A stretch of DNA of 64,000 bases from a virus (Duplodnaviria > Heunggongvirae > Uroviricota > Caudoviricetes): IMG/VR virus record IMGVR_UViG_3300035501_000580. One strand, given 5' to 3'. A program made the position numbers and the translations under genes. Positions 12,787 to 59,065 of the stretch are shown here, piece after piece (position 1 is the first letter of the stretch; each line of letters opens with the position of its first letter). Under the pieces are notes generated by a model. That model saw only the letters and a program-made list of their open reading frames with translations, was not told the origin of the DNA and made no database searches.

Positions 12787-12861
12787 ATTTAATTTGTGAC
12801 TTCGGTGGGGATCGAACCCACGACCTTCCAGTGTTTAACCAGACGCTCTACCAGCTGAGAC
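12787..12861 (-). tRNA. tRNA, atypical (75 nt; anticodon arm TCTGG/TTAAACA/CTGGA, nominal anticodon AAA; irregular D-arm)
   Basis: reverse complement folds with 7-bp acceptor and T-arm GTGGG-TTCGATC-CCCAC; anticodon arm identical to tRNA at 13197..13268. Confidence 0.55.
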
Positions 12862-12961
12862 GTACGAAGTCAATCAATGCTATCTCACGACATGATGATT
12901 ATTTGTGTGTAAAAATTTAAATTCTATAAGAATAATTTAAAAAAATTAGTAAAAAACTCTG

Positions 12962-13034
12962 TGACTCCGGTGGGGCTCGAACCCACGACCCACTGATTAA
13001 GAGTCAGTTGCTCTACCAACTGAGCTACGAAGCC
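12962..13034 (-). tRNA. tRNA-Lys(CTT)
   Basis: cloverleaf: D-arm GCTC-AGTTGGTA-GAGC, anticodon loop CTCTTAA, T-arm GTGGG-TTCGAGC-CCCAC. Confidence 0.85.
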
Positions 13035-13196
13035 TAATCAATCATGTCTCACGACATGATGATTTTCTCTCTCTCACTTAATAAATAATTTATTTATAAA
13101 TCAAAAACTTATATACAATGAAAAAAAAATAATGTACTAAAAAAAAACACTTACTATGGTTATGTCTCACGACATAAAAGCATCAAATGAAAAAGT

Positions 13197-13268
13197 AACT
13201 CCGATGGGACTCGAACCCACGACCTTCCAGTGTTTAACCAGACGCTCTACCAACTGAGCTACGGAGTT
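13197..13268 (-). tRNA. tRNA, canonical 72-nt cloverleaf but anticodon loop TTAAACA (nominal anticodon AAA, C at position 37)
   Basis: perfect D- and T-arms; anticodon stem needs two G.U pairs; isotype uncertain (Phe-like?). Confidence 0.65.
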
Positions 13269-15216: not shown

Positions 15217-17127
15217 CTATATTTTCAAACCCATAAGATATACATCTAACACATGAGAAAGACCATTTGGTGCATATGTTTTAACTATTTCTGTTCTACT
15301 GGTCATCTTTAGTTTTTCTATCATTTCAGTATTTGGATTTGGGTCTATATATATGATAGGTGTAGTCGATGGAACATAAGTCATTAAATTGGCTGCGGGG
15401 AAAGTTTCTAATGAAGTTCCCACCATTACGAATATGTCACAAGACCTAACCAATTCGATAGCTTCTGTCATTCTATTTACGGTTTCGTGATATAGAGTAA
15501 TCCAAGGTCTCATCTTTGCATTACCATTTGATGTCTGTTTGACTTTTGGGAAATAAGTCCAAACCTTAGCATCTGTTGGTAATCCACAATCTTTATGACT
15601 TTCTGTTGTGTCTATTGTTACAACTCCGGATTGTACATACTTACCATTTACTTTTTTATATTTTGAAACTCCTGCCAATGTTGTTGTTGTTGTGTTATCA
15701 TCTTCGGAAACACTTTTTGTCCAATATGATAAGTCAGCATGGTAGTTTGTATTATCGACATCATCTTCATTGCACATAATCATTAAATTACCATGAAGAT
15801 GTATAAGGTGTTCATCTATGAATTCTTTCGCTGTCATAGATTTTCCAATATTGGTAAATTTCATATATTTATAAAAACCACTATCACTAATTCCATATAT
15901 CGGGGGTTCATATGACGTGTTATAATATCTAAAAAAATAGTCACATAATGCTTTGTCATGTAGGTCATCAATATTCTGAGTAATGATTTTCACATCAAAG
16001 GTATTATGTTTATTTGTTCCTTCACCAATAGTATCATTAATGAATTTATTTATAATTTGATAACCAAGATGCATGGTATTTTTATTAATGTAACTGGCTC
16101 TCAATTCATTAAAAAATCTATTCAAGAAAACAGGGTCAGAATTCCACCCGGATTTTGTCATTATCATATCAATAGGGTTCTCATACCACAAATTACCTTC
16201 TTCCTCACTCTTATATGTATAGATACCATTTTCCTCACTCATACCCGCACCTGTAAAGAAAACAATTCTAACAGGGACTTCACTTGTTTTAATAAGGTCA
16301 TCTTCAGGCCAACCATATTTCTCTAATACTTCCTCAGCTTTAAGAATTAGATAGTTAGCACTTGAATCTGTTCTTGACCATTGTTTATACATTTTCTTTT
16401 TTACTCTATCTCTATCGGTCAAATTTGTTTCATCCTCTGTATGTGTCCAAGTTCCACTATCCCAAGGTTGTTTATATATTCTGGGAAATGTGTGTGTGGT
16501 AAATCGTTTATATTCTTGAAGTGTTTTACCGATACAAGTGTTATAGAATATTCGTCTTTGTGACTTATTCATATTATTTTTCATCGCAACATAAGCCCAG
16601 TGAACATGGGGGTATCTGGCATCCATTACGGGATAATATGTGTATGATGTTCTAAAAGGCGTTAGAGCTTCGGAATCAATCAATGTGAATAATAATGATT
16701 GTATTTCGACAGATATAGATTTGAATTTCTCATTTAGCTCACCTGTTTTTAAATATTGTGGAACATTTTGTGTGGTACTATCATAACTAGCAAGAATAAT
16801 ATTATTATACAGATATAAATCTTCAATTTGTGATATTGTAAGATATGTATTTTGAGTTAAAGATATTGATTTAACACCATTTGGGTGAATTTTTACATCT
16901 TCATTACCATCATACCACCCATCAGTCTCAATTATTCTATTGTTATATACGGGTCTATATACTTGTCGAGTTGTACCATCATCTGAAGTGACAGTAACAA
17001 TTCTACTACCTTTTGGTACATAATAGTTGCCCATCTTATAACAAATTCTATATATTTGTTTATATAGTTTTTGTATTTGACAGGCGGTTTTATAATCTTC
17101 TATAAATTTGTTTTGAAGAAAAGCCAT
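15217..17127 (-). CDS. SIR2-family (sirtuin-like) protein, 636 aa, with ~280-aa unknown N-terminal domain; no zinc-ribbon cysteines
   Basis: motifs TGAGMS (Rossmann GAG.S), TQNIDDLH (QNID.LH), HLHGNL (catalytic HG), VMVGTSLETFPAANL (GTSL.V.P) in correct order. Confidence 0.75.
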   Translation of the reverse strand: MAFLQNKFIEDYKTACQIQKLYKQIYRICYKMGNYYVPKGSRIVTVTSDDGTTRQVYRPVYNNRIIETDGWYDGNEDVKIHPNGVKSISLTQNTYLTISQIEDLYLYNNIILASYDSTTQNVPQYLKTGELNEKFKSISVEIQSLLFTLIDSEALTPFRTSYTYYPVMDARYPHVHWAYVAMKNNMNKSQRRIFYNTCIGKTLQEYKRFTTHTFPRIYKQPWDSGTWTHTEDETNLTDRDRVKKKMYKQWSRTDSSANYLILKAEEVLEKYGWPEDDLIKTSEVPVRIVFFTGAGMSEENGIYTYKSEEEGNLWYENPIDMIMTKSGWNSDPVFLNRFFNELRASYINKNTMHLGYQIINKFINDTIGEGTNKHNTFDVKIITQNIDDLHDKALCDYFFRYYNTSYEPPIYGISDSGFYKYMKFTNIGKSMTAKEFIDEHLIHLHGNLMIMCNEDDVDNTNYHADLSYWTKSVSEDDNTTTTTLAGVSKYKKVNGKYVQSGVVTIDTTESHKDCGLPTDAKVWTYFPKVKQTSNGNAKMRPWITLYHETVNRMTEAIELVRSCDIFVMVGTSLETFPAANLMTYVPSTTPIIYIDPNPNTEMIEKLKMTSRTEIVKTYAPNGLSHVLDVYLMGLKI

Positions 17128-17142
17128 GATATTTTACAACGA

Positions 17143-17502
17143 TCAATTTACAGTATTTATGGTCGTTTTCCATATCTCTAAGTATTCTTCGGCTTTGTTT
17201 GTCCACTCATGGGGGATTAAGATTGCTCGTGCGAAAACTTTCTTTGTCCAACCTTGTATATGTCCATGATTATTTCCTATTTGAAGTCCTTTTTCTTTAT
17301 CAACAGCATATACCAAGTGAGTATAGTAGTTTCCATGAATTTTAATGTAAGCGATGTCACCTTTCTTAAATTGATTCCAGTCGGTTTCGGGAACTAATAT
17401 TACTGGTTCTCTGGATTTCAAAATTGGTGTCATCGAATTTCCCGGTTCTCTGGAGATTATAGTTTCACCTTTCTTCAACCTTTCTACTTTGTAATTTCTC
17501 AT
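17143..17502 (-). CDS. putative S24/S26-type serine peptidase (LexA/UmuD/signal-peptidase-like), 119 aa
   Basis: PGNSMTP (G.SM nucleophile motif) and downstream K; size typical of standalone S24 domain. Confidence 0.45.
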   Translation of the reverse strand: MRNYKVERLKKGETIISREPGNSMTPILKSREPVILVPETDWNQFKKGDIAYIKIHGNYYTHLVYAVDKEKGLQIGNNHGHIQGWTKKVFARAILIPHEWTNKAEEYLEIWKTTINTVN

Positions 17503-17647
17503 ATTTACTTATTTATTTTGATTTTAAGACACTTTAACAGTCCGGATGGTAACTTCTTCATCTCAGTCAGTAAAGTCCGTCAGAACTCGTTATTTTAAGC
17601 CGTACAGATATAACAAGAGCCAAGTAATAGAACTCGGCTCATTATAA

Positions 17648-37952: not shown

Positions 37953-38158
37953 TTTTTATAAATGTGAAGTTGAATTATTAAGATGATATAAACTACAACG
38001 GATCCCCAAGAAAAGAGTGACATTATAAAGTGAAATATCAAATCACGTTGTATGTTTTTGAACCTAAGAGATGATTTTTTGTAATCACTCAATATGATAT
38101 GGATAGTATAAAGTCCAAGACAATATGCTACTAAAATACCTAAAATATATCCTATCAT
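37949..38158 (-). CDS. small 2-TM membrane protein (69 aa)
   Basis: two hydrophobic helices; translationally coupled to upstream NTase (ATGA overlap). Confidence 0.45.
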   Translation of the reverse strand: MIGYILGILVAYCLGLYTIHIILSDYKKSSLRFKNIQRDLIFHFIMSLFSWGSVVVYIILIIQLHIYKN

Positions 38159-39429
38159 TTCTGGTTGAATTTATTTCGTGCATATAACAGGAGGTCATTT
38201 ACCATATCAACAGAAATCTCATCAGGAATAACAGATTTAGATATTTCTTCATCCATTTGAGATTTAAGTTCTGTTAGTTTAGACATCAACTCATCATAAG
38301 TATATTTTCTATTTCTAACATCAAGGAGAAAATCAGCATCAATTCCTCTACGGTCAAGTTTAAGTCCTTCACCCTTAGCTACTTCAATCGCCATAGAAAT
38401 CAGACGGAAACAGTGACACATATTCTTAGCATCATAGAACTTCGCTGAGTTTTCTTTTTCGAGTCCTTCAAGGTTGTTTTCATACCGAGCTTTGTTACGG
38501 TTTTTCTTCCAATCCTCATACTCACGATATTTCTTACAATGTTGTCTATAACCATTTTCATTGTAAGACATATAACAAATAGGTGTAGAACCTTTTAATG
38601 TTTCTGAAAAACGGATTTCATTACTTGAACCCACATTAGAAATGATACCGCAGTGTTTACCAAAAGGAGTTTTAATTTTTTCATAAAGATTTTTCATTAC
38701 CCAAGACCATTTCATTTCGGTCTGGTCAAATTTAGATGTTAAAGTTGTATATACATAGTTCAAGAATTTGTCATTACGATTTTTTTCGTCGGTGAAAAAT
38801 TCTTTTGTGATACCATTTAGTTCAATGTGTTGACCAAAGTCATAGAACACATCAAACATATTAGGCATATTGGGCACATTTACCAATCCACAGTTACTTT
38901 GGTCAAGACCTCGTTCACTGAGCCAAGTTTGAATGTTTTGACTACCCTGTCCCTTAAAAGTATAACAAAAATCGAGGGGAGTCTTTCTAACCATCTTCTC
39001 AATGTCCCAGTGAATTTTCTTATCTTGTCCCTGAGCCTTTTTAATCTGAGACACAGCATAACCACCAAAAGGCATGAAACATTGTTTGGTGATGAATTGG
39101 TCACGATACTTTTTGATATTCGTAATGATGGGGTGTTCATACAAGACCTTATCATCAGGAACGAACAGGGCTTCCAATACAGTGGGGTTAGATGATAGGA
39201 GTAGTCTCATGAACTTACCTATCTCCCACCAACAGGTATCATGTTTCTCATCACAGATTTCATTCTGGTAATCAAAACCAAGGTCAAGAAGTTGATTTGA
39301 GGGAGCGATATAGATACCACCTTCATCAACGTCACTTGTTTCGACATTGGTACCATAGACCTGTGAACCCCTTATGTAACGATATAAGAGAAGTCCTTTA
39401 TCTTCTATGTCTTTGAATGTTAGTTTCAT
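38155..39429 (-). CDS. pol-beta-superfamily nucleotidyltransferase, 424 aa (OAS/cGAS/DncV-like arrangement GS.VYGT-N5-SDVDEG)
   Basis: N-terminal RGSQVYGTNVETSDVDEGGIYI signature. Confidence 0.55.
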   Translation of the reverse strand: MKLTFKDIEDKGLLLYRYIRGSQVYGTNVETSDVDEGGIYIAPSNQLLDLGFDYQNEICDEKHDTCWWEIGKFMRLLLSSNPTVLEALFVPDDKVLYEHPIITNIKKYRDQFITKQCFMPFGGYAVSQIKKAQGQDKKIHWDIEKMVRKTPLDFCYTFKGQGSQNIQTWLSERGLDQSNCGLVNVPNMPNMFDVFYDFGQHIELNGITKEFFTDEKNRNDKFLNYVYTTLTSKFDQTEMKWSWVMKNLYEKIKTPFGKHCGIISNVGSSNEIRFSETLKGSTPICYMSYNENGYRQHCKKYREYEDWKKNRNKARYENNLEGLEKENSAKFYDAKNMCHCFRLISMAIEVAKGEGLKLDRRGIDADFLLDVRNRKYTYDELMSKLTELKSQMDEEISKSVIPDEISVDMVNDLLLYARNKFNQK

Positions 39430-48636: not shown

Positions 48637-48753
48637 TTGTTTACCATCGTGGGTTGCCAGAAGATGATTTTTTACAGACTTTGTTCACCAAGAGTCCGAA
48701 TAGAACACACATCCATTGCCTTTCAGATAGCCTCGGTTATCGGCGGAGAGGGA

Positions 48754-48838
48754 GGGATTCGAACCCCCGGACCAATAATGGCCAACGGTTTTCAAGACCG
48801 CCGCAATCGACCACTCTGCCACCTCTCCAAAATTTGTT
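48754..48838 (-). tRNA. tRNA-Ser(TGA), class II
   Basis: anticodon loop CTTGAAA, long variable arm, T-arm GGGGG-TTCGAAT-CCCTC. Confidence 0.85.
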
Positions 48839-49398
48839 TAACCAAATTTTTTAATTGTATCTTGAACTCGATTTAACCAACCTGTCAAGAATTGTTTTTG
48901 TGAAGGATTTTTAGCAACATTATCCTTATATCTTTGGATTCTTTGATTACCTAATTCCTTCGCAATTTCATCTTTATGAACTCCATTAGCATATGAAATT
49001 GTTGTTTGTCCAATCTTACCATCTACAACAATATTCACCTTACATACTTTATTTATGGCTTGTTGTAATAATTTAACTGAACCTACACAACCACTATTTA
49101 CTGCATGATCATATAAATGAGCTGAGATTAATAAAGAATCAAAACTATCAATCTTCATAGTGTTATAAAAATTAGTGAGATAAAATTCCTCTACTAATGT
49201 TTGTAATTGTAGATTGTTTATTTTTTGATTCCATTTTAGAGGTTTATTCTTATCTACAATACTCCATCCAGACCACTTAGGCCAATTCTTTCTGGAAATA
49301 CCACAGTAAGTTTCTCCACCTCTATCTCCTTTTACATTTGCATATCCACCTTCAATAGTTAAAGTTGCGTCAATAATTTGTTTCGCTTTGGTTGTCAT
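48838..49398 (-). CDS. endolysin-type lysozyme, glycoside hydrolase family 108 with C-terminal PG-binding-like domain (186 aa)
   Basis: N-terminal EGGYANVKGDRGGETYCGIS = GH108 hallmark EGG(Y/F).N...D.GG.T..GI. Confidence 0.75.
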   Translation of the reverse strand: MTTKAKQIIDATLTIEGGYANVKGDRGGETYCGISRKNWPKWSGWSIVDKNKPLKWNQKINNLQLQTLVEEFYLTNFYNTMKIDSFDSLLISAHLYDHAVNSGCVGSVKLLQQAINKVCKVNIVVDGKIGQTTISYANGVHKDEIAKELGNQRIQRYKDNVAKNPSQKQFLTGWLNRVQDTIKKFG

Positions 49399-49780
49399 TT
49401 GTTTGTTTTACATATTGTGTATGGTCAGAATAACCAAGGATGTAAATTATTAAAATCTCTTTCTTCACTTACATTTGGTTCATTTAACATCTGACGAATT
49501 TGGTAGTCAGTAAAGTTTCTCAACTGTTTTTCAAAAGTAACATCTTCAAATCGCATAGGTAGAAAATTTTAAGGTTAGTATTAATGCGGAGAGCAGTGGA
49601 CACGAACCACATACGATTACTCGTACAATCGGTTTAGCAGACCGTCCTTTTACCTCAAAAGTTTACTCTCCATAATCAACAAGATTCAAAATCAAAACCA
49701 CCTATATAAATTTATGTACTAAAAAGTTGCGGTATGAATCTTTACTTCATCTAATATATTTATGTAATTGTGAGCCCGGT

Positions 49781-49853
49781 GGGACTCGAACCCACGACCC
49801 CCACATTAAAAGTGTGGTGCTCTACCATCTGAGCTACGGACCCCAACCTAATG
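49781..49853 (-). tRNA. tRNA-Lys(TTT)
   Basis: anticodon loop CTTTTAA; canonical D and T arms. Confidence 0.85.
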
Positions 49854-50441
49854 TTTGTCTTTTATTGTCCATGTGATATTTCTACCAAAACCTCTATTCG
49901 CTCCTTTATATGTAGAAGTGAGTGAGTGACAATTTGGACAAACCAATCTTAAATTATTCTCAGAGTTATTTTCTGAGTTTCCATCTATGTGATCGATTTC
50001 TAAAGGAATAGTGTTTGTATATGGGTTTACTTTTGACCAACCACATTCACAACATTTATAATCAAACTTTTCAAATATATAACGTCGTAATTGCTTAGGT
50101 AATTGTCCCCATTTTGTTGACTTAGCGATTGAGTTATCTAATTTGTAATGTTCCACCCACTGTTTATATTCAAAGTCCTGTTGACATTTATTTGAACAAT
50201 ATTTACATCCGGACTTTATTTCTTTTCCACAATATTTACAGTAGGTTTTCTTACCTTGACCTTTATTGACAGGTTGTTTTCCTGAGTTTTTAGACCGAAC
50301 AGGTAACTCAAAACCTCTATTCCTCATTACTTTCTTGATATTGTTACCAGAACATCCAAATAGACGACCAATTTCCTCATAAGAAAGTTTATCTACAAAT
50401 ATATATCTCTTTAATATGTCAATGTTCTCAGTCCAATCCAT
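49848..50441 (-). CDS. HNH homing endonuclease (197 aa)
   Basis: C..C zinc pairs and PLEIDHIDGNSENNSENNLRLVCPNCHSL. Confidence 0.75.
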   Translation of the reverse strand: MDWTENIDILKRYIFVDKLSYEEIGRLFGCSGNNIKKVMRNRGFELPVRSKNSGKQPVNKGQGKKTYCKYCGKEIKSGCKYCSNKCQQDFEYKQWVEHYKLDNSIAKSTKWGQLPKQLRRYIFEKFDYKCCECGWSKVNPYTNTIPLEIDHIDGNSENNSENNLRLVCPNCHSLTSTYKGANRGFGRNITWTIKDKH

Positions 50442-50443
50442 AG

Positions 50444-50516
50444 AGTTGACGAGCGGAGTCGAACCGCTGAATAATGGTTTTGCAGACCAGTCCCTTAACC
50501 ACTTGGGTACGTCAAC
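50444..50516 (-). tRNA. tRNA-Cys(GCA)
   Basis: anticodon loop CTGCAAA, T-arm AGCGG-TTCGACT-CCGCT. Confidence 0.8.
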
Positions 50517-50526
50517 ATTGTTTAGG

Positions 50527-50608
50527 TGCTCATGAAGGGACTCGAACCCATACGTCTTTTGACAACAGATCCTAAGTCTGTCGCGTCTACCAATTCCGCC
50601 ACATGAGC
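50527..50608 (-). tRNA. tRNA-Leu(TAG), class II
   Basis: anticodon arm ACAGA-CTTAGGA-TCTGT, long variable arm. Confidence 0.8.
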
Positions 50609-50614
50609 AGTCTA

Positions 50615-51313
50615 TTAAGTTCTTTCTTGTTTAGATGATTGAGATGTTTTCAAGATAGAAGCGTCATACATTTCAGGAGAAGTAATAATATCTCTACCTC
50701 TACTTGGTGCATTATTCTTCATATTATCTAACATTGATTGAAATTGTGATTTTCTATCATCACTTGTTTTCAATACATCATCTCTTTCACCACTGGAAGC
50801 CAACTGATAAACTGTATTAGGAGCACCTGATTGAACAGTTCTTGAAGATGCACTATTATATACATTAGAACTTCCAGATAAATAATCAGTTGTTGTAGTA
50901 GGTATGGTAATGTTAGTATTTATTACGCCATTATATCTAAAAAAGTGTATAGTTGTCGTACCTAAACTCGCATATACCATTACACTATTTTGTTTGAAAT
51001 CTGATATCCATTGACTACCAGAATACATACAAATATGACCGGGAGCACTTTGGTTGTAAGTAGGTTTCATATATACTGCAATATCACCGGGTTGAGGTGT
51101 ATATGTACTGGCATTACTACTACTCATCTGGGCAACTTCATTAAAACCTATTGAGGGTAAATAATTAATATATTTCCAAGCCCAGTCAGGTCTTCCTGAT
51201 GTGGATAACCCTCCAGATTCAATGGCCATTCTGACATACTTCGCACACTTACCTTGTGATTTAACAGAGGCTCTACTTGCTAATGAATTTACACATTTTT
51301 GTAAATCAAACAT
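50615..51313 (-). CDS. CHAP-domain peptidoglycan hydrolase with S/T-rich C-terminal region (232 aa)
   Basis: Cys block GKCAKYVRMAI and His block GDIAVY ... GHICMY. Confidence 0.65.
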   Translation of the reverse strand: MFDLQKCVNSLASRASVKSQGKCAKYVRMAIESGGLSTSGRPDWAWKYINYLPSIGFNEVAQMSSSNASTYTPQPGDIAVYMKPTYNQSAPGHICMYSGSQWISDFKQNSVMVYASLGTTTIHFFRYNGVINTNITIPTTTTDYLSGSSNVYNSASSRTVQSGAPNTVYQLASSGERDDVLKTSDDRKSQFQSMLDNMKNNAPSRGRDIITSPEMYDASILKTSQSSKQERT

Positions 51314-51337
51314 AATTCACCTATTCCAATATATCGG

Positions 51338-51408
51338 TTGGAATATCAAGGCTCGAACTTGAAACGACAGAACCAAAATCTGTAGTGTTACCATTACACC
51401 ATATTCCA
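51338..51408 (-). tRNA. tRNA-Gln(TTG)
   Basis: anticodon arm ACAGA-TTTTGGT-TCTGT. Confidence 0.8.
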
Positions 51409-51416
51409 ATGTTTAG

Positions 51417-51490
51417 CGGTGTATATGGGACTCGAACCCATGACCCCCTGCGTGACAGGCAGGTATTCTAACCATCTGAACTAATACACC
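51417..51490 (-). tRNA. tRNA-Asp(GTC)
   Basis: anticodon arm CCTGC-CTGTCAC-GCAGG. Confidence 0.85.
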
Positions 51491-51497
51491 TCACTAT

Positions 51498-51968
51498 TTA
51501 ATAATTATCATCTTTATCTACGGCGACACCTTCCCAAATACCTAAAAGGTTTTCGTCAGTTTCAGGGTTTTCGATAAAGTATTCTTCAACTTTTTCTTTA
51601 GTTTTATTATTAAATTTATAGACAGTTATTGATTTTACGGTAGGACATCTATCTTCTTCTTCTAACTCAGCAATGTCCCATACAACATCAACAATTCTAT
51701 AAAAATCCCAAAAGAACACACCTTCACCAAACCATTGTTTACCTACATAAAAGGGAGTATACATCTCAAGATGTCTTAACACATCTTCTTTATATCTGGT
51801 TTTTATTTCTTCAATTTCTTGTTCTCTTCTAGAACGATACGAACCAGTGTCTTTTATGTGATTTAATTGGTCTATATACATTGTTCTTATATATGAACAA
51901 ATTCTTTCATAATGTTCATGGAAATAATTGATATTTCTACGAGCTTCTTTAATGTGACTTTTTATCAT
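51498..51968 (-). CDS. hypothetical protein (156 aa)
   Basis: ORF. Confidence 0.5.
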   Translation of the reverse strand: MIKSHIKEARRNINYFHEHYERICSYIRTMYIDQLNHIKDTGSYRSRREQEIEEIKTRYKEDVLRHLEMYTPFYVGKQWFGEGVFFWDFYRIVDVVWDIAELEEEDRCPTVKSITVYKFNNKTKEKVEEYFIENPETDENLLGIWEGVAVDKDDNY

Positions 51969-51995
51969 GATTGATTAAAGGTTAAAATATATGTG

Positions 51996-52070
51996 GGGGT
52001 TAGAATGAGGATCGAACTCATACCACAAGTGCCACAAACTCGGATGCTAACCGTTAACACCATCTAACCC
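51996..52070 (-). tRNA. tRNA-His(GTG) with encoded G-1
   Basis: anticodon loop TTGTGGC; extra 5' G pairing with discriminator C (8-bp acceptor). Confidence 0.8.
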
Positions 52071-52226
52071 ATGTCAAAAAATCTCGACTAACAGCTCATC
52101 TTCTTGTATCCATACTTTCCAGATGATTTTGAGCTTCATAGTGTTATCGGGTATGAACTCTCATGGTTACTGACTTCGAGATTTCAAATGTGAACACTAC
52201 TACTAACCATTTTTCATGTTCTTTGG

Positions 52227-52298
52227 TAGCGGGGGTAGGGATCGAACCTACGACCTTAAGCTTATGAGGCTTACGAGCTACCTCTGCTCTACCCCGCA
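52227..52298 (-). tRNA. tRNA-Met(CAT) (elongator or Ile2-type); CCA encoded downstream at 52224-52226
   Basis: anticodon arm TAAGC-CTCATAA-GCTTA. Confidence 0.8.
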
Positions 52299-52303
52299 AT
52301 ATA

Positions 52304-52771
52304 TCATAATTTCAATAGACCATTATCAAATTCCCAATGATGATTAGGACACAAACCAATTAGATTGTCCGGGTTATTTATTTCTGATATTGGAGTGTCA
52401 TCACTAAACTCTGAAACTGGTTTAATGTGAGCTACCTCAACATGATTTGTATAACCACATATTTCACATCTATAAGGTTTATTTGATTTCATGAATGATT
52501 TTCTGGCAAGTCTTGTGATAGAACTTCGAGCGGATTGCCAATTTTTTCTATTTTTGAATAAATCACCTTTTGTTTGGATAGATATTGGAGTTTTAGTTTG
52601 ACTTTGTGGTTCAGGTATCATCAGGTCTTTACATCTTTTTTTGATGGATGTTTTGACATTTGATGACATCGGATATACATAACCAAATCTATAACTTAAA
52701 TCTTTCCATGTAGATGATGTCAAAATAATTTCAGAAAACTGTTCATCATCAAATGAATCTAAATTAGTCAT
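52304..52771 (-). CDS. HNH homing endonuclease (155 aa)
   Basis: CEICGY ... AHIKP ... NLIGLCPNHH. Confidence 0.7.
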   Translation of the reverse strand: MTNLDSFDDEQFSEIILTSSTWKDLSYRFGYVYPMSSNVKTSIKKRCKDLMIPEPQSQTKTPISIQTKGDLFKNRKNWQSARSSITRLARKSFMKSNKPYRCEICGYTNHVEVAHIKPVSEFSDDTPISEINNPDNLIGLCPNHHWEFDNGLLKL

Positions 52772-52786
52772 ATCTTATTATTTTAG

Positions 52787-52859
52787 AGCCGAATAAGGGA
52801 CTCGAACCCATGACCCCGAGATTACAAATCACGTGCTCTACCAACTGAGCTAATTCGGC
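52787..52859 (-). tRNA. tRNA-Thr(TGT)
   Basis: anticodon loop TTTGTAA; one mismatch in anticodon stem. Confidence 0.75.
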
Positions 52860-53100
52860 ATGATTAAAATTTGGTTTTATTTACTACATCAGAAGAAAAG
52901 GTAAAAAGGTGGTTGGAATGATAATGAATTATTTTTGATTTTCTCGCAAATAATTCATAGGTATCATTCCGGAAGGACAAAAGTAGTAAGTAGAAGATGC
53001 TTCAAGATACCACTTAAAGGCCTTTTTAAATGATTTACAAATTTTCTTCATAACTGTAAACTTATTATATATATTAAAATTTCAATGTTCTCTTAATTTG

Positions 53101-53173
53101 TGGAGTCACTCGGGATCGAACCGAGAACCATAGAATGCAAATCTATAATTTTAGCCAGTTAAACTATGACCCC
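53101..53173 (-). tRNA. tRNA-Ala(TGC)
   Basis: anticodon arm ATAGA-TTTGCAT-TCTAT. Confidence 0.8.
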
Positions 53174-53255
53174 CGACTGAGGCGGGAAGGATTTGAACCA
53201 ACAACCAGGATCCCATGCACTACTCCGTTGCCCACTGAGGGGTAAATCCCTCTTC
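53174..53255 (-). other. tRNA-like element (T-loop GGTTCAAATCC) without foldable cloverleaf; flanked by direct repeat ACTGAGG
   Basis: T-arm-like segment only; acceptor complement absent. Confidence 0.25.
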
Positions 53256-53269
53256 CCTTAGTTATCGCT

Positions 53270-53560
53270 TTACGTTTCTGTTCCTCGTGTCACTTGTGTC
53301 CGTATTCCCTTTGTGTCAGTCCGTATTCCATTTTGTGTCACCGAGTTCGTATTCCATTTTGTGTCATCCAGTTTTCCCATTGTGTCATCCCGTTTCCATC
53401 CGGTTCCTGTTTCTGTATCAAGAGTTTCCATCTGTTTCTGTATCCACTTGTGTCCGTATTCCCCAGTGTCCGTTTCCATGTTTTTGTGTCACCTGTAATC
53501 TGTTGTGTCACCCGTAGTCCTATTGCGTTTCCGTAGTTGTGTCGTAGTAGGAAATTACCT
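53270..53560. repeat. degenerate tandem repeat array (TTGTGTCA / GTATTCC / GTTTCC units, ~20-24 bp period), strongly pyrimidine-skewed on plus strand
   Basis: read directly: cttgtgtccgtattcc, ctttgtgtcagtccgtattcc, attttgtgtcaccgagttcgtattcc ... Confidence 0.7.
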
Positions 53561-53590
53561 ACTCTATCCAAATTGAGCTACCGCCCATGG
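53551..53590 (-). pseudogene. tRNA 5'-half fragment (acceptor + D-arm GCTC-AATTTGGATA-GAGT) lacking T-arm
   Basis: reverse complement GGGCGGTAGCTCAATTTGGATAGAGTAGGTAATTTC; no downstream T-arm. Confidence 0.35.
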
Positions 53591-53663
53591 CATCGGGTAC
53601 GGGATTTGAACCCGTGTTCCTACCGTGAAAGGGTAATGTCCTAGACCCCTAGACGAACCCGAC
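53591..53663 (-). tRNA. tRNA-Glu(TTC)
   Basis: anticodon loop CTTTCAC, T-arm ACGGG-TTCAAAT-CCCGT. Confidence 0.8.
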
Positions 53664-53753
53664 AAACTTAAATTGTAATTCTACTTCAAAGAACTGTATA
53701 TTAAATATAACAAATAATCTTGATTTCTCTCAGATTTATTGTTTTTTTTTCTG

Positions 53754-53826
53754 TGGAGAAGGATGGAATCGAACCATCATAAGAGGATTTTCAGTCCACC
53801 GCATTGACCAACTTTGCTACCTCTCC
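53754..53826 (-). tRNA. tRNA-Phe(GAA)
   Basis: anticodon loop CTGAAAA, T-arm GATGG-TTCGATT-CCATC. Confidence 0.8.
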
Positions 53827-53832
53827 ATTTTG

Positions 53833-53916
53833 TGGGAGTGGAGGGAATCGAACCCCCTCAGACGATAGTCAGCAGATTTACAGTCTGCCGCGACTCTCCA
53901 ACTTCGCCGCACTCCC
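53833..53916 (-). tRNA. tRNA-Tyr(GTA), class II
   Basis: anticodon arm GCAGA-CTGTAAA-TCTGC, long variable arm. Confidence 0.85.
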
Positions 53917-53925
53917 AATTTGTTG

Positions 53926-54007
53926 TACCTTCTCTGGGACTCGAACCCAGACACTGTTAAGTATTTGATTTTGAATCAAACGTGTCTACCAATTCCACCA
54001 AGAAGGC
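53926..54007 (-). tRNA. tRNA-Leu(CAA), class II
   Basis: anticodon arm TTTGA-TTCAAAA-TCAAA, long variable arm. Confidence 0.8.
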
Positions 54008-54009
54008 AA

Positions 54010-54052
54010 AAAAGAAACTCACATCTTCTGGTTAATTAGAATATGTGAGTTT
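54010..54052. terminator. bidirectional terminator-like hairpin (10-bp stem aaactcacat/atgtgagttt flanked by A4 and T4)
   Basis: seen in sequence immediately downstream (minus sense) of tRNA block. Confidence 0.5.
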
Positions 54053-54292
54053 TATATCATTTTAATTATTACACATTAACACACATATCCGGTATCCCCC
54101 AAATCTTCATCAGATGTGGTTGATGATTGGTAACAACTATATGTAAACTGTTTATGTGACATAATTATCATATTCTAATAAAATAGACAAGATTCAACTT
54201 TGACCTGAAAAAAATATAATGAACATAAGTTTGCGGTATGAATCTTTACTACCAATTTAATTTATTTATGTAAATTTATTTTTAAAATTTTG

Positions 54293-54365
54293 AGCGAGAT
54301 ATGGGACTCGAACCCACGACTTTCAGATTGGAAATCTGACGCTCTACCAACTGAGTTAATCTCGC
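54293..54365 (-). tRNA. tRNA-Gly(TCC)
   Basis: anticodon arm TCAGA-TTTCCAA-TCTGA. Confidence 0.8.
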
Positions 54366-54640
54366 AAGTAAACAGGCGACGTAGAACTGGGGTTATGTTC
54401 ACCCCAATAAACACACACTCGAAATCTGGTAGCTTTCTACCCCCACTTAGACGTCCCCTTTCGTGTCCTCTGTATCAGGGTTCTCAGTACAGCAATCTTT
54501 CAGGTATCAACACCTCCCCATTCTATGTCTTTGGCTTGGATACACTAACTTCAACCATCAGACCAGTTCTCTCAACATTAGACTCCTATGGATGTGATTA
54601 TCCAAATCGGGATAATCAATACTTCACTCTACTTGATTAG
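54366..54640. ncRNA. candidate structured RNA / non-coding spacer (GC-elevated, no minus-strand ORF)
   Basis: composition shift and absence of coding capacity on the used strand. Confidence 0.2.
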
Positions 54641-54900
54641 AGCAAATGTCTCACATAGTGTCTGTGTCCATTGTATCCAAGTTTCGATTTCCATTGTATC
54701 CAAGTTTCGATTTCCATTGCAACCCCTTCGTTTCCATCTGTTTCCATATTATATAGGTGTCATCACTCTGTATTCCTATTTTTATTGTTTCCCTTTGTAT
54801 CCGTTCGTGACTCAAGTTTTGTATCCACCCTTCGATGTCCATTGTATCCACCCTTCGATGTCCATTGTATCAATCTGTAATCTACATGAATGAGAAATAT
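54640..54900. repeat. second degenerate tandem repeat array (TTGTATCC-containing units incl. two perfect 23-bp tandem copies ccattgtatccaagtttcgattt and ttgtatccacccttcgatgtcca x2)
   Basis: read directly; same TGT(A/G)TCC core as array at 53270-53560. Confidence 0.7.
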
Positions 54901-55016
54901 TGCCCTTATCCCTTTTCAACCACACCATCAACAGGTCGTTTTTACATACGAACTAAACCTTCGACGTGTATAATTGTATTCTACACACCTGTTAAATTTT
55001 CAATGTTCTCTTTTCG

Positions 55017-55090
55017 CGGCTCAGGTAGGACTCGAACCTACGACACCCTGATTAACAGTCAGGTGCTCTAACCTACTGAGCTACTGAGCC
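55017..55090 (-). tRNA. tRNA-Asn(GTT)
   Basis: anticodon arm CCTGA-CTGTTAA-TCAGG. Confidence 0.85.
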
Positions 55091-55098
55091 AACTCATC

Positions 55099-55524
55099 TT
55101 AAATATTTATGATTTTCTCAAACGAAAAATCTTCGTAATTCAAAGGTTCATATTGGTTATGTGTTTCCTTAAATGGTACATTAACCTTTATGGCATTTCT
55201 ATTTTGAAGTTTCTCGATAGGTATTAACATCAATATTTTAGATTCTACATTATAGATTGAAAAATAATCAATGTCATTACAATCATATTTTTTAAAGTAG
55301 TTGTGACCATTCCTAATAGTTCCACTTCTTAAATCTACGGTAAAACCATCTTTCTTCATTTTATATGAAGTTTTAACCTGTATTTTATTAAGTTTACCAT
55401 TAAATTCGGCTATCAAATCAGCACTTTCATTGTCACCAAATGGGATATAAACAGGAACTCCTAACTCCACGAATTTGGTTAATGTAATTGCTTCTCCAAT
55501 ATTTCCAACTCTTTTACTCTGCAT
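55099..55524 (-). CDS. putative PD-(D/E)XK-type nuclease (possible homing endonuclease), ~141 aa from Met at 55524
   Basis: GEAITLTKFVELG ... PFGDNESADLIAE ... KIQVKT resembles D..E.K restriction-fold core; start trimmed to avoid tRNA-Pro overlap. Confidence 0.4.
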   Translation of the reverse strand: MQSKRVGNIGEAITLTKFVELGVPVYIPFGDNESADLIAEFNGKLNKIQVKTSYKMKKDGFTVDLRSGTIRNGHNYFKKYDCNDIDYFSIYNVESKILMLIPIEKLQNRNAIKVNVPFKETHNQYEPLNYEDFSFEKIINI

Positions 55525-55526
55525 AG

Positions 55527-55599
55527 TCGGGATGACACGACTCGAACGTGCGACCTCACCACCCCAAATGGCAAATTCTACCAACTGAAATACATCCCG
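55527..55599 (-). tRNA. tRNA-Pro(TGG)
   Basis: anticodon loop TTTGGGG, T-arm GCACG-TTCGAGT-CGTGT. Confidence 0.7.
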
Positions 55600-55610
55600 A
55601 AAAATTTTAA

Positions 55611-55688
55611 TGGTCAGGTGGGAAGGACTCGAACCTCCAACAGTACGACCTACTTCGGCCGCCCTCTAACCAATTGATCTACCACCTG
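55611..55688 (-). tRNA. tRNA-like gene with genomically encoded CCA; good acceptor/T-arm, irregular D- and anticodon arms; 5' part overlaps the last 8 codons of HNH gene
   Basis: acceptor CAGGTGG/CCACCTG, T-arm GGAGG-TTCGAGT-CCTTC, ACCA tail; anticodon stem closes a 6-nt loop. Confidence 0.4.
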
Positions 55689-56253
55689 TTTTTCTAATAC
55701 CTTGTATGATTTTTCTTGTCAATCCAAAAAACTCAGCCACTTTTTCCCAAGAATTAAGTTCCAGATATTTTTGATTTACTTCATCACAAGAAGGATACCT
55801 TTTATCTTTCAATCTACATTCAGGAGAACAATAGATTTTACCTTTCATTCTGGTGAACAACTTACCACAACATTTACATTTAGTATAAGCTGTTTTCTTA
55901 GGTGTGATAAAAGATGATTTATTGGAATCTTCTATGACTTCATTAATCTCATCCATGTTAAGTCCGGGGTTGTGAATTTCCCTATGACAATTAGCACACA
56001 ATAATTGACATTTATCCAACTCTTTGTTAAGTATGTCAATTCTGGTATTTGCGAAGTGATGGATATCTAATTGAAATAACTTAGTAGAAGGGTTGATGTG
56101 GTGAAAATCGAGAGCTGATATATTATGATTATATCCACAGATTTCACATTTACCACCCTTAAAGATGATAGCCTCATATTTTCTTTTGAGACCTCTTATC
56201 TTCTGGTTAGTATATTTATTAGGGTTGTCCATAACTTCAAAATTTGTGTCCAT
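55666..56253 (-). CDS. HNH homing endonuclease (195 aa)
   Basis: KCEICGY ... DFHHINP ... LLCANCHREIH; second zinc module CKCCG ... CSPEC. Confidence 0.7.
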   Translation of the reverse strand: MDTNFEVMDNPNKYTNQKIRGLKRKYEAIIFKGGKCEICGYNHNISALDFHHINPSTKLFQLDIHHFANTRIDILNKELDKCQLLCANCHREIHNPGLNMDEINEVIEDSNKSSFITPKKTAYTKCKCCGKLFTRMKGKIYCSPECRLKDKRYPSCDEVNQKYLELNSWEKVAEFFGLTRKIIQGIRKTGGRSIG

Positions 56254-56524
56254 CCAAGGAATTGAACCTTTGTGGTTGAAAAATGTCTAACCACCTACGA
56301 CCTCCGGAGAGTCATCCCTATTACCAAACAGGGCAAGAACAGACAAGTGACCATTGTTTTGGTACAATGGAGAAAACCCGTACAAGGCTACCAATTAGGC
56401 GGCGGCGTACATGACCTTTTCGGGTCGTGAAAAATTGTTGCCAGTTAAATAGGCCATAGACTTCTCCTTCATTCCTACTCATATGTCATCAATACCAGTC
56501 ATCCCCTTATATTTATTTTACTTT

Positions 56525-56560
56525 GTGGAGATGGTGGGGATCGAACCCACGTCTAACATA
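56525..56560 (-). pseudogene. tRNA 3'-half fragment (variable loop + T-arm GTGGG-TTCGATC-CCCAC + acceptor CATCTCC-A)
   Basis: no matching 5' half (GGAGATG) nearby. Confidence 0.4.
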
Positions 56561-56589
56561 CTTTCTTAATATTATCAACAAAATCTATA

Positions 56590-56663
56590 GTGGTCCGGAT
56601 AGGGCTTGAACCTATGACCTTCTGATTATGAGTCAGCTGCTCTAACCAACTGAGCTACGGGAC
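56590..56663 (-). tRNA. tRNA-Met(CAT), second copy (distinct sequence; elongator/initiator/Ile2 not resolvable)
   Basis: anticodon loop CTCATAA, T-arm ATAGG-TTCAAGC-CCTAT. Confidence 0.8.
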
Positions 56664-56858
56664 CGAAATACAAAGTTCAATAAATGGATATGAGTTATAA
56701 TGAGTTGCAATAAATTGCGGTATGAACTTTTATGTATTTTAATGAAAATTAATAGACGAATTTATCAAGATACTATCACTCTATGGCAGAGGATTATTGC
56801 GGTCTGTATCTTTATTTAAGTTTCAACAAATTAAATATAACAAAATGATTTCAATTTT

Positions 56859-57317
56859 CTACTTTTTTGTCAATTTTTCTTTGACTATTTGAGAAGCCAT
56901 TGCACCATCAACTTGACCTGTATAAGTTTTGTTGATGTATCCCATGACTTTTCCCATACCTGACATATCCGTTACTGAAAAATCTGAAATAACTTGGTCA
57001 ACGATTTTTTCAACTTCATCTACTGTCAACATTTTAGGGAGATATTCACTAAGGACACGATATTCTCTGATTTCCTTATCCGCTAATTCAGGTCTATGAT
57101 TAACTCGATAAATTTCACAAGTTTCCAGACGGGACTTAGCTAACTTTTGAATAATCTTAATAATGTCTTTATCATCAGGATTTTTATTTCCATTCTTAGC
57201 TGTTTTCAATTCCATGATAGATGTTTTGATATTACGAATTGTATCTGCTCGTAATTCATCTCTGGATTTGATAGCTTCCATTAAATCCTTTTGAAGTTTT
57301 TCTTCAAGAGTGTTCAT
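56859..57317 (-). CDS. YqeY/GatB-C-terminal-domain-like protein (152 aa)
   Basis: LEEKLQKDLMEAIKSRDELRADTIRNIKTSI ... LSEYLPKMLTVDEVEKIVDQVISD ... MGKVMGYINK ... GQVDGAMASQIVKEKL aligns along whole length with YqeY family. Confidence 0.65.
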   Translation of the reverse strand: MNTLEEKLQKDLMEAIKSRDELRADTIRNIKTSIMELKTAKNGNKNPDDKDIIKIIQKLAKSRLETCEIYRVNHRPELADKEIREYRVLSEYLPKMLTVDEVEKIVDQVISDFSVTDMSGMGKVMGYINKTYTGQVDGAMASQIVKEKLTKK

Positions 57318-57337
57318 CTGTAAAAATTTTTAGTTAG

Positions 57338-57411
57338 TTGGACTGATGGGATTTGAACCCATGACCCCTACATTATCAGTGTAGTGCTCTAACCAACTGA
57401 GCTACAGTCCA
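57338..57411 (-). tRNA. tRNA-Ile(GAT)
   Basis: anticodon arm CTACA-CTGATAA-TGTAG. Confidence 0.85.
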
Positions 57412-57589
57412 AGAATAAACAAGATGTGGGTGTTCTTCCTATTTTTATTCAGTGGTGGAAATCCAAGCAACCCACTTTTCTCATATACCGAAGTGATATG
57501 AGCATTGTATAATTAATGATTGTCGAGAAGTTATTGCAGTTACCACATCTTTATGTAAAACAAAACAATAAACAAAAAACAATATGTTG

Positions 57590-57624
57590 TGATCCGGATG
57601 AGATTCGAACTCATGACCCACAGT
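57590..57624 (-). tRNA. 3' exon of split tRNA (anticodon 3' stem ACTGT, variable GGGTC, T-arm ATGAG-TTCGAAT-CTCAT, acceptor CCGGATC-A)
   Basis: pairs perfectly with 5' exon at 58245..58283 across a 620-bp interruption. Confidence 0.6.
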
Positions 57625-58244
57625 TTAGCATACTACTCTATATTTCTATAGCCAATATTATTAATATTGTTGTAGTCTGGACTTTGTCTTCACCATTTCA
57701 GGTAGGAGTGCGTAAAGTCTCTACGGAGTCTCTTATAAGTAAGTTCCCTCGGCGTTTTCTTCATCATTATATTGTGTATAACATGCTAAGACGTTCACCG
57801 ATATAGCACTCTCCAGTTTATGTGTTAATCCATGATGTTGTATTTCAACAGATAATTTACCTCTACACTTACGTGAACAACAAGTACAATTTAGTTTACT
57901 TGGTTTTTGTAAGTGTGTTTGTCGTTTTTCTCTGATAAATATTTCACCACACCACGGACATTGTAATTTTACCATTTGTTTACCTTTTAATAAACCATGT
58001 AATTTACAATGTTCTTTATTCACCATAACTTCAAGATTTTCTATACGATTATCTTTCTTATTATGATTTTTGTGATGAACAACTTCATTACTATTCAAAA
58101 CTCGACCAAGATAATTTTCCATAATTACTCTATGTTCTAAAACATATCCAGCATCTGATGCGTTTGGATGTTCAGGACATAATACATAATTGTAATCACC
58201 TTTACTTATAACTTTTTGAATATTCCACATAAACGCTCCTATTA
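57625..58244 (-). mobile_element. ~620-bp intervening element inside tRNA anticodon loop carrying HNH endonuclease ORF (candidate group I intron or HEG insertion)
   Basis: exon halves on both sides; SD AGGAG + ATG begin 3 nt and 17 nt (respectively) after the anticodon loop. Confidence 0.5.
57733..58230 (-). CDS. HNH homing endonuclease (165 aa) encoded within the tRNA-interrupting element
   Basis: SNEVVHHKNHNKKDNRIENLEVMVNKEHCKLHG (HNH) and C-terminal CPWCG ... CTCCSRKC zinc module. Confidence 0.7.
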   Translation of the reverse strand: MWNIQKVISKGDYNYVLCPEHPNASDAGYVLEHRVIMENYLGRVLNSNEVVHHKNHNKKDNRIENLEVMVNKEHCKLHGLLKGKQMVKLQCPWCGEIFIREKRQTHLQKPSKLNCTCCSRKCRGKLSVEIQHHGLTHKLESAISVNVLACYTQYNDEENAEGTYL

Positions 58245-58283
58245 TTCAAAGACTGTTGCTCTATCCAACTGAGCTACCGGACC
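58245..58283 (-). tRNA. 5' exon of split tRNA (acceptor GGTCCGG, D-arm GCTC-AGTTGGATA-GAGC, anticodon stem ACAGT + loop CTTTGAA; nominal anticodon TTG)
   Basis: reverse complement of 58245-58283. Confidence 0.6.
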
Positions 58284-58376
58284 AATATTTACAAGGTTCA
58301 TTTTCTGATCAAAATTCATAAAAGTAAATCTTGCGGTGAGAACCTTTAAATTAAACTTACATATTAAATATAACAA

Positions 58377-58901
58377 CTATTCTTCATTTTTACCTCTTTT
58401 TCCTAAATTTATTTCGTAATATTTTATCTGATTTGCGAGTTCAGGGCCAAATACAACTTCTTTTGTTGAGGTATGTTCAGCCCAATCTTCGGGATGGTCT
58501 TCTCCGCCAAAAATGAAATACTTCTCACTTATTACAGAGAGTGCATCTTCGAGGATTTCAGATATAAGTTGTCTTGATAAATCTGTTCCATTAAAGAAAG
58601 CTATGACTTCTTTAAGGATACCTTTTTCTCTCAGATTAACATCAACATACGACGCACCCCGATAGACCTTAAATAATTTTTCACCCGTTTCAGGATTGTA
58701 TTTATGTAGGTCTCTAACTGCGATATATGGTTTGTTGTACTTATAGTTATCCAGAATAAACTGAATTACATCATTGACAGCTAACCAATATAAATCAGCG
58801 TCATTTCTTATTTCGGCTTGGTAATATTTCATTTTATATATTTCATTACTCCCCAGACAAAAATAAGGATACCTGCAAGAACCGGAAGTCCACCAAGACA
58901 T
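58377..58901 (-). CDS. hypothetical protein (174 aa)
   Basis: ORF downstream of promoter unit 58995-59065. Confidence 0.5.
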   Translation of the reverse strand: MSWWTSGSCRYPYFCLGSNEIYKMKYYQAEIRNDADLYWLAVNDVIQFILDNYKYNKPYIAVRDLHKYNPETGEKLFKVYRGASYVDVNLREKGILKEVIAFFNGTDLSRQLISEILEDALSVISEKYFIFGGEDHPEDWAEHTSTKEVVFGPELANQIKYYEINLGKRGKNEE

Positions 58902-58994
58902 TCGGGTGTGTAACCATTAAATGAGGCGAGGATAAGGATGATACCGAGAATTATTCTTTTCATAACTTTGTTTTTTAATTTGTTTGACTTGTTT

Positions 58995-59065
58995 TTTAAT
59001 TACACTACAAAGTTACAGGTTTTTCTCGACATAACCAAATTTTAAATGTTAATTATTTGTTAATT
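58995..59065 (-). promoter_or_regulatory. conserved promoter unit
   Basis: attacactacaaagttacaggtttttctcgacataaccaaattttaaatg. Confidence 0.65.

Follow-up and report, generated by a model that had tools for sequence, protein, structure and literature searches.

The stretch analysed here, 64,000 nucleotides from a Caudoviricetes virus (IMG/VR record IMGVR_UViG_3300035501_000580; hereafter the window), carries at positions 15217-17127 on the minus strand a single open reading frame (ORF) of 636 codons with an ATG start, which encodes a sirtuin preceded by a long N-terminal domain and is called here the fused sirtuin (Table 1). By direct reading, the four sirtuin signature blocks FFTGAGMS, ITQNIDDLH, HLHGNL and VMVGTSLETFPAANL are present in this order, as an earlier inspection of the letters alone (the sequence-only reading) had reported. 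The pattern is not due to chance, because significant matches were obtained to the Pfam family SIR2 (PF02146; E=4.3e-15; 56.6 bits, the gathering score being 24; two matching stretches, residues 293-393 and ~535-600), to PHROG 2162 'Sir2' (1.7e-10) and, in a sequence search of the PDB, to E. coli CobB (8.7e-11); the remaining two Pfam matches of the protein, at E=0.03-0.04, are noise. Ahead of the GAG motif lie ~285 residues with no family match in Pfam or PHROG, and the segment between the HG (446) and GTS (570) motifs holds only three cysteines, C452, C514 and C563, with zero CxxC pairs, so that both the long uncharacterised N-terminal domain and the lack of C..C/C..C zinc pairs described earlier were borne out. 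The correct start is the ATG at 17127 and not Met32, which one public gene call (P0001, 605 amino acids (aa)) uses, because a fragment with 82% identity (P0006) begins at the same Met, and F8 and D11 do not vary in the family described below.

Every line of evidence assigns residues 286-636, as a prediction, to the classical deacylase sirtuins and not to the defence-type SIR2 NADases. Aligned with CobB and phage sirtuins, the protein keeps all residues for NAD binding and catalysis, namely GAGxS (293-297), Q384, N385 and D387, H445, GTS (570-572) and DPNP (595-598), and thus the catalytic His and Asn, whose absence the sequence-only reading would have counted against itself, are in place together with Asp387. 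The NCBIfam matches are to 'NAD-dependent protein deacylase' models only, PF02146 is the sole SIR2-type family matched in Pfam, where SIR2_2 gave no match at E<=1, and zero families of the PADLOC defence models were matched at E<=1. When the AlphaFold2 (AF2) model was compared with the PDB using Foldseek, all 50 neighbours listed were classical deacylases (CobB, Sir2Af1/2, SIRT5, PfSir2A and SIRT2). Using a profile built from short members of the phage clade, the nearest cellular relatives (45–50% identity) were found in Prevotella pallens and several Winogradskyella species, all Bacteroidota, where they are annotated as 'SIR2 family NAD-dependent protein deacylase'. On conserved columns the catalytic domain of the fused sirtuin is 30–36% identical to these cellular proteins and 34–46% identical to the short phage sirtuins. 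In a rough neighbour-joining tree it falls in a phage clade beside the Bacteroidota sirtuins, with E. coli CobB outside and the Serratia phage BF sirtuin as a distant outgroup. The Bacteroidetes host guessed in the sequence-only reading is indirectly consistent with these nearest cellular homologues. That reading had also named, as the outcome that would speak against it, a housekeeping deacetylase clade with an intact zinc module that had been overlooked; the protein does lie in a CobB-like deacylase clade, but no overlooked zinc module exists. Two database entries met during these comparisons need a separate remark. The NCBI protein P0002 (386 aa) appears to consist of a zinc-free sirtuin that is partly duplicated in tandem: the first ~147 residues recur from residue 155, and the second copy alone continues into a complete domain, probably as an artefact of assembly or gene calling. 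The sirtuin-bearing stretch of ON470619.1 (L014, 'Escherichia phage vB_EcoS-813R8, partial genome') is DNA of the E. coli chromosome (lolD-lolE-nagK-cobB-ycfZ-ymfA-potD), and its 'phage Sir2' is the cobB gene of the host.

Judged from the sequence, the absence of the Cys4 zinc ribbon is real, yet ordinary within the subfamily. The Prevotella and Winogradskyella sirtuins have a single Cys in the segment corresponding to the ribbon, and the four cysteines are also absent from the sirtuins of the LR756500 huge phage and Serratia phage BF and from two NT5C-sirtuin fusions (P0003 and P0004). The 80 viral loci of IMG/VR closest to the fused sirtuin yielded 71 sirtuins that could be parsed for Cys pairs; 66 of these have fewer than two CxxC pairs, while both controls, E. 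coli CobB and P0005, showed the pairs. In the fused sirtuin itself, a small domain with one conserved cysteine, Cys452 (in 'MC'), takes the place of the ribbon. Because the cellular relatives annotated as deacylases and most of the viral relatives are zinc-free, the loss of zinc characterises a lineage, a subfamily of deacylases, and is no evidence for NADase activity, and the likeness to ThsA and DSR that the sequence-only reading had drawn from it is not upheld by the PADLOC and SIR2_2 searches either. More generally, a missing zinc ribbon is no marker of a defence-type NADase, as the entire deacylase-annotated subfamily of Bacteroidota and phages is zinc-free.

The N-terminal domain matches none of the entries of Pfam, PHROG, NCBIfam, the PDB and BFVD. 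Pfam and PHROG scans of every family member gave scattered single-member noise only, a profile of the domain against PDB sequences gave noise only (NCS-1 at E=0.14), and the best Foldseek match in BFVD had E=0.46. Word-indexed protein searches returned five hits with the full protein, none of them related over residues 1-285, and one fragment only with the N-domain profile. The fusion family was revealed by an exhaustive HMMER search, and later searches added three full-length members, giving 11 full-length proteins of 441-636 aa with the same two-domain layout, in which the motifs F..DY, PH.HW.Y, R...Y and P..Y are followed by a zinc-free sirtuin; the fused sirtuin of the window fits this definition. 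Sixteen residues are invariant in the 11 members (F8, D11, D73, P173, H174, H176, W177, Y179, R191, Y195, P215, Y218, A264, E265, Y271 and G272), including the signature PH.HW.Y...R...Y. A hidden Markov model (HMM) of the domain recovered the family members at E=1e-54 to 1e-74 and nothing else, and the family comprises about a dozen clusters of proteins, encoded by related phages known from metagenomes. The domain is absent from the 80 nearest IMG/VR sirtuins, zero relatives were found by scanning IMG/VR contigs with the full protein or IMG/VR and JGI metagenome contigs with the pattern PH[VY]HW[AL]Y, and its HMM detected no free-standing copy in ~90 loci or elsewhere in the window. An origin from an adjacent free-standing gene was rejected for lack of such a stand-alone homologue. 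The structure prediction proposed in the sequence-only reading gave a mainly helical model but no match in the PDB or BFVD: as predicted by AF2, the first helix is long (5-35), the beta-hairpin region is expanded in the fused sirtuin, and the PH.HW.Y and R...Y helices have a predicted local distance difference test score (pLDDT) of ~85-94.

Taken together, the fused sirtuin is a phage version of a CobB-like, naturally zinc-free sirtuin subfamily of Bacteroidota and their large phages, and we tentatively favour the reading that it is an NAD+-dependent protein lysine deacylase targeted or regulated by a phage-specific N-terminal domain, which seems plausible if somewhat short of probable. The chemistry follows from family membership and the full set of catalytic residues: the enzyme would strip acyl groups from protein lysines in an NAD+-dependent reaction, yielding nicotinamide and O-acyl-ADP-ribose. 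According to a review (PMC8556138), the ADP-ribosylating SirTM sirtuins are deacylase-inactive, most likely for want of the catalytic His; the fused sirtuin retains this residue as H445. The obligate fusion and its conservation lead us to infer that the N-terminal domain serves in targeting or regulation; most likely it would recruit or gate the enzyme toward particular host or phage proteins during infection, and the protein would probably be expressed as a two-gene unit with the small S24-like ORF upstream.

Several points weigh against this reading. Deacylase activity throughout the fusion family is a prediction from sequence, the CobB equivalog cut-offs are unmet (78.2 bits against 243 for NF001753 and 59 bits against 320 for NF040867), the mean pLDDT of 62-66 gives moderate structure confidence, and the invariant His, Trp, Tyr and Arg of the N-terminal domain could form a ligand-binding or catalytic site instead of a protein-docking surface. 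The remaining points concern the subclade that the fused sirtuin forms with P0007 and P0015 in the rough tree. There the cofactor loop reads GIYTYK or GIPTYY, against the consensus GIPTFR of the family and CobB, so that Arg becomes Lys or Tyr across the subclade (in the fused sirtuin, Phe becomes Tyr305 and Arg becomes Lys306), and the FGE substrate loop is changed into YHE, YDE or YEE; 8 of the 11 family members retain the canonical residues of both loops. Moreover, in the contigs of P0007 and P0015 (L006 and L008) a second gene, for a canonical sirtuin of 261 aa from the same clade, lies immediately after the divergent fused gene, which suggests that the fused copy there gained a different activity; no second canonical copy was found within the 64-kb window. 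Given the altered substrate- and cofactor-loop residues, a changed activity of the subclade is possible. The subclade also has an additional inserted segment in the N-terminal domain, and two insertions of ~45 aa each (394-438 and ~463-512), both modelled with low confidence, are private to the fused sirtuin; the first lies where other members of the family have anything from 0 to ~190 aa. The rate of change, in contrast, speaks for the favoured reading: between the L006 phage and the window, the neighbouring 119-aa ORF is 79% identical and a DPBB protein 63%, while P0007 and the fused sirtuin share 28%, and this is a pattern typical of host-interaction proteins.

The window comes from a jumbo phage; the fused sirtuin occurs in identical form on contigs of up to 326-352 kb, and a megablast search with the 6.5-kb region found no nucleotide-level match among 50,697 deposited phage genomes. 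All window genes run in the same direction as the sirtuin gene, whose neighbours include T4_Y16D and DPBB_1 besides the S24-like and PI-PLC-X-like ORFs. The S24/S26-peptidase-like 119-aa ORF, which has no match in PHROG or the PDB, ends 15 nucleotides before the sirtuin start, and the two genes are probably co-transcribed as a two-gene unit. L006 and eight IMG/VR loci, of which about five are distinct, have a homologue of it (50–79% identity) at a distance of 0.5-2.7 kb upstream of a sirtuin gene; apart from the sirtuin, these loci share almost nothing more with the window, one of them also a helicase fragment. This small protein, with the motif GNSM...GD...TH.V...GNN.G..GWT, thus recurs before sirtuins in several otherwise dissimilar phage contigs. 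In L040, the pair of S24-like and sirtuin genes appears, as read from motifs, to adjoin NadE-, NadD- and Nudix-like ORFs. Terminator-like hairpins are no more frequent in the region than in shuffled sequence, and the position of the one upstream of the two-gene unit is only suggestive. To our knowledge, a phospholipase-C-like catalytic domain such as that encoded directly downstream is unusual in phages. The Acb3-like ORF ~4 kb downstream suggests an accessory or anti-defence region. Other genes of the window encode endolysin-type proteins, a Dda-like helicase, a Dam methylase and a thymidine kinase, and the NAD-dependent DNA ligase mentioned in the sequence-only reading is indeed present. The window contains 23 tRNA genes (22 plus the tmRNA found by ARAGORN, one more at 12797-12871 added by Rfam), and the permuted tmRNA lies inside a phage tRNA cluster of ~20 genes; with RlaP and the YqeY-like, CCA/HD and Thg1-like proteins, the tRNAs form a substantial tRNA maintenance kit.

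In related phages, the fused gene has further neighbours. In L006, L007 and L011, an R2K-clade ATP-grasp gene follows the N-domain sirtuin at a distance of 0.7-3 kb; L006 and L099 have a CofE-like F420_ligase gene (PF01996) on the downstream side, and a PF00004 AAA+ ATPase gene precedes the fused gene in L006, L007, L009, L096 and L098. The second short sirtuin, the CofE-like ligase and the AAA+ ATPase could constitute a protein-modification gene set in these relatives. In the window, the R2K homologue lies 42 kb from the sirtuin, adjoining an unannotated 186-aa ORF (59874-60434, minus strand) and the NAD-dependent DNA ligase, and no homologue of the AAA+ or CofE proteins was found in its 64 kb. 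Since the relatives all belong to one phage lineage and are not independent, and since the linkages are broken in the window, they are regarded as hints only. Synteny between L098 and the window covers SLT, OmpA, a 311-aa ORF and T4_Y16D, and the position of the fused sirtuin is thus conserved.

Table 1. Features of the fused sirtuin, of the window and of related loci. Coordinates refer to the window unless a locus is named; residue numbers refer to the fused sirtuin.
Feature	Coordinates	Strand	Basis
Complete ORF, 636 aa: zinc-free sirtuin preceded by N-terminal domain of unknown function	15217..17127	-	ORF list, Pfam, PDB, direct reading
N-terminal domain (1-255), mainly helical, beta-hairpin insert ~36-95	16363..17127	-	family alignments, AF2 models
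Signature motif DARYPHVHWAY (169-179)	16591..16623	-	P-H-x-H-W-x-Y invariant in 11/11 full-length members
Conserved linker helix LILKAEEVLEKYG... (256-285) into the Rossmann fold	16273..16362	-	AF2, alignments; A264, E265, Y271, G272 invariant
Sirtuin catalytic domain (286-636), PF02146	15220..16272	-	Pfam, PHROG, PDB, fold, NCBIfam
FFTGAGMS (290-297), NAD-binding GAGxS motif	16237..16260	-	alignment, direct reading
GIYTYK (301-306), cofactor-binding loop	16210..16227	-	alignment
ITQNIDDLH (382-390), with Gln384, Asn385, Asp387	15958..15984	-	alignment, direct reading
Private insertion of ~45 aa (394-438), between DLHDKA and HLHG	15814..15948	-	alignments; pLDDT <50
HLHGNL (443-448), catalytic His H445	15784..15801	-	alignment, direct reading
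Small domain in place of zinc ribbon (449-538), without CxxC pair	15514..15783	-	alignment, AF2, direct reading
Private low-confidence insert (~463-512) inside small domain	15592-15741	-	AF2, alignment
MRPWITLYHE (539-548), substrate-binding loop	15484..15513	-	alignment
VMVGTSLETFPAANL (567-581), GTS motif	15385..15429	-	alignment, direct reading
IYIDPNPN (592-599), adenine-ribose binding motif	15331..15354	-	alignment, direct reading
Upstream 119-aa ORF, S24/S26-peptidase-like, GNSM motif	17143..17502	-	weak family hits
Terminator-like hairpin upstream of two-gene unit	17617..17640	-	hairpin scan
Terminator-like hairpin with T-run, 31 nucleotides past sirtuin stop codon	15158..15186	-	hairpin scan
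192-aa ORF directly downstream, PI-PLC X domain PF00388	14424-15002	-	Pfam, 29.4 vs 23.1 bits
303-aa ORF, 'CBASS inhibitor Acb3' PF25187	10337-11248	-	Pfam, 30.7 bits vs gathering score 27
tRNA genes	12797-13268 and 48742-62474		
RlaP, RNA-repair-pathway pol-beta nucleotidyltransferase	38155-39429	-	
Thg1-like tRNA-His guanylyltransferase, PF04446	43297-44070	-	1e-29
Permuted tmRNA, RF04321, tag peptide GNNFSRPEKVMYAAA	56395-56585	-	60.7 bits vs gathering score 47; tag from ARAGORN
YqeY-like protein	56859-57317	-	
R2K-clade ATP-grasp peptide ligase, PF18299	59060..59890	-	Pfam, 4.6e-14
NAD-dependent DNA ligase (LigA)	60434-62326		
CCA-adding/poly(A)-polymerase-like protein with HD domain	63011-63997	-	
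Second short sirtuin, CofE-like F420_ligase and AAA+ ATPase around fused sirtuin	L006 9497-11333; L099 5128-6243; L096/L098/L009 upstream genes		
S24-like ORF upstream of sirtuin	L006 (4670-5023), L016, L021/23, L040/83/84 (L040 5206-5532), L069, L076		

Other activities can be weighed against a targeted deacylase. It is unlikely, though compatible with a number of observations, that the protein is a mono-ADP-ribosyltransferase or another NAD+-dependent transferase acting on a host factor chosen by the N-terminal domain, its loops having been altered by the switch from deacylation. The cofactor-loop Arg and the Gly of FGE are lost in the subclade, the fused copy beside a canonical short sirtuin in L006 and L008 looks like a duplicate with a new function, the gene is linked in relatives to the protein-modifying R2K ATP-grasp and CofE-like ligases, some sirtuins have been reported as ADP-ribosyltransferases (PMC9503650; PMC8556138), and R2K genes elsewhere are linked to ADP-ribosylglycohydrolase (PMC4431377); however, the catalytic His that SirTM-type transferases lack is kept, none of the partner genes macro, ARH and NADAR is found nearby in the flanks, and most family members have a fully canonical deacylase motif set. 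In our view it is rather more doubtful that the N-terminal domain constitutes a novel module for ligand binding or catalysis, with a His/His/Trp/Tyr/Arg/Tyr site, and the fusion one arm of a new phage protein-modifying system, which in related phages would include the R2K ATP-grasp, the CofE-like gamma-glutamyl ligase and the PF00004 AAA+ ATPase; a writer/eraser pair, adding and removing aminoacyl, glutamyl or ADP-ribose groups on host translation or metabolic proteins, is conceivable within such a system. A catalytically weakened or regulatory sirtuin-like protein, serving as a sensor of NAD+ or ADP-ribose or as a decoy for host or defence factors, with the N-terminal domain as the functional part, appears improbable: the very fast divergence relative to neighbours (28% against 63–79% identity), the two long low-confidence insertions and the altered loop residues would fit it, but all core residues for NAD binding and catalysis are kept under this rapid divergence, which argues for selection on catalysis.

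A role in RNA or tRNA repair, as KptA-like removal of 2'-phosphates, put forward by Iyer et al. 2022 for the majority of viral sirtuins and predicted for those of jumbo phages (PMC9503650), is highly improbable here. The tRNA maintenance genes of the window would agree with it, and Thg1-like homologues (30–35% identity) lie within ~5 kb of short sirtuins in nine IMG/VR loci (L020, L036, L041/42, L057-59, L079 and L085), so that a linkage between sirtuins and tRNA repair, as Iyer et al. 2022 proposed, is possible; but the RNA-repair genes of the window are 20-45 kb from the sirtuin, no 2H, Nudix, cREC, PIN, RNA-ligase or HAD gene is adjacent to it in the window or the family loci, and the Serratia phage BF sirtuin is a distant outgroup, only ~25% identical and with the variants TANVDD and GSS. 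We give the least credence to the NAD+-depleting effector suggested in the sequence-only reading for superinfection exclusion, a ThsA/DSR-like NADase that could equally serve host shut-down. The absent zinc ribbon, the large multidomain architecture of a phage-borne protein and the accessory or anti-defence genes nearby, such as the Acb3-like ORF, would fit it, but the family-level tests all contradict it: PADLOC and SIR2_2 are unmatched, the fold neighbours listed are all deacylases, the cellular homologues annotated as deacylases have lost the zinc ribbon as well, the peptide-binding elements are conserved across the family, and the sensors or partner domains usual in defence SIR2 systems are lacking. 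The dependence of the phage LigA itself on NAD+ also fits poorly with an effector that depletes it.

Phage sirtuins and the R2K ligases of jumbo phages have been catalogued computationally (PMC9503650, PMC7824862, PMC4431377), and for classical, non-defence phage sirtuins we found in the literature comparative-genomics predictions only and no experimental or biochemical work. New here is a small, phage-restricted fusion family with an N-terminal domain matching no known entry. It offers a route to the targets of phage sirtuins, that is, to the proteins deacylated or ADP-ribosylated in takeover or counter-defence, with the conserved extra domain probably being key to target choice. If the fused domain were a new ligand sensor or enzyme, it would represent a new regulatory principle for sirtuins.

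Compared with known systems, the SirTM enzymes are microbial sirtuins with a conflict-related role, lacking the catalytic His and encoded beside a macrodomain gene (PMC8556138), and this identity was rejected because H445 is present and no macrodomain gene occurs in the flanks. The defence SIR2 NADases (ThsA, DSR1/2 and SIR2-HerA) are, like the fused sirtuin, NAD+-binding members of the SIR2 superfamily with no zinc ribbon, but they differ from it in sequence models, in the fold neighbours listed and in their partner or sensor architecture; none of SLOG, TIR/ThsB, HerA, pAgo and the DSR C-terminal solenoid was found among the neighbours or matched by the N-terminal domain, and a defence-type SIR2 was rejected on these searches and on the deacylase fold neighbours. 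The clade of the Serratia phage BF sirtuin (AQW88637.1), for which RNA repair is predicted (PMC9503650), is likewise phage-encoded, zinc-free and found in jumbo phages. The BF gene adjoins NAMPT, NMNAT and Nudix genes, whereas the sirtuin gene of the window does not. The best matches with solved structures, both by sequence and by fold, are E. coli CobB and human SIRT5 of class III (1S5P, 6RXJ and 2B4Y), which share with the fused sirtuin the Rossmann core and the catalytic His, but have a Cys4 zinc ribbon and no counterpart to the N-terminal domain. Their Tyr-x-x-Arg pair, which recognises succinyl-lysine, is aligned with F-x-x-x-R in the fused sirtuin. CobB, Sir2Af and SIRT5 are among the closest relatives, but above all these are the short "NAD-dependent deacylases" of Bacteroidota and phages (Prevotella pallens P0070, Winogradskyella eximia P0045, the LR756500 huge phage and L040), proteins of 221-276 aa with mostly 7-12 and up to 41 residues before the GAG motif. 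They share with the fused sirtuin the PF02146 core, the motif set and the absence of Cys4, and the fused sirtuin differs from them in the extra 285-residue N-terminal region, the two insertions of ~45 aa and the changes from FR to YK and from FGE to YHE.

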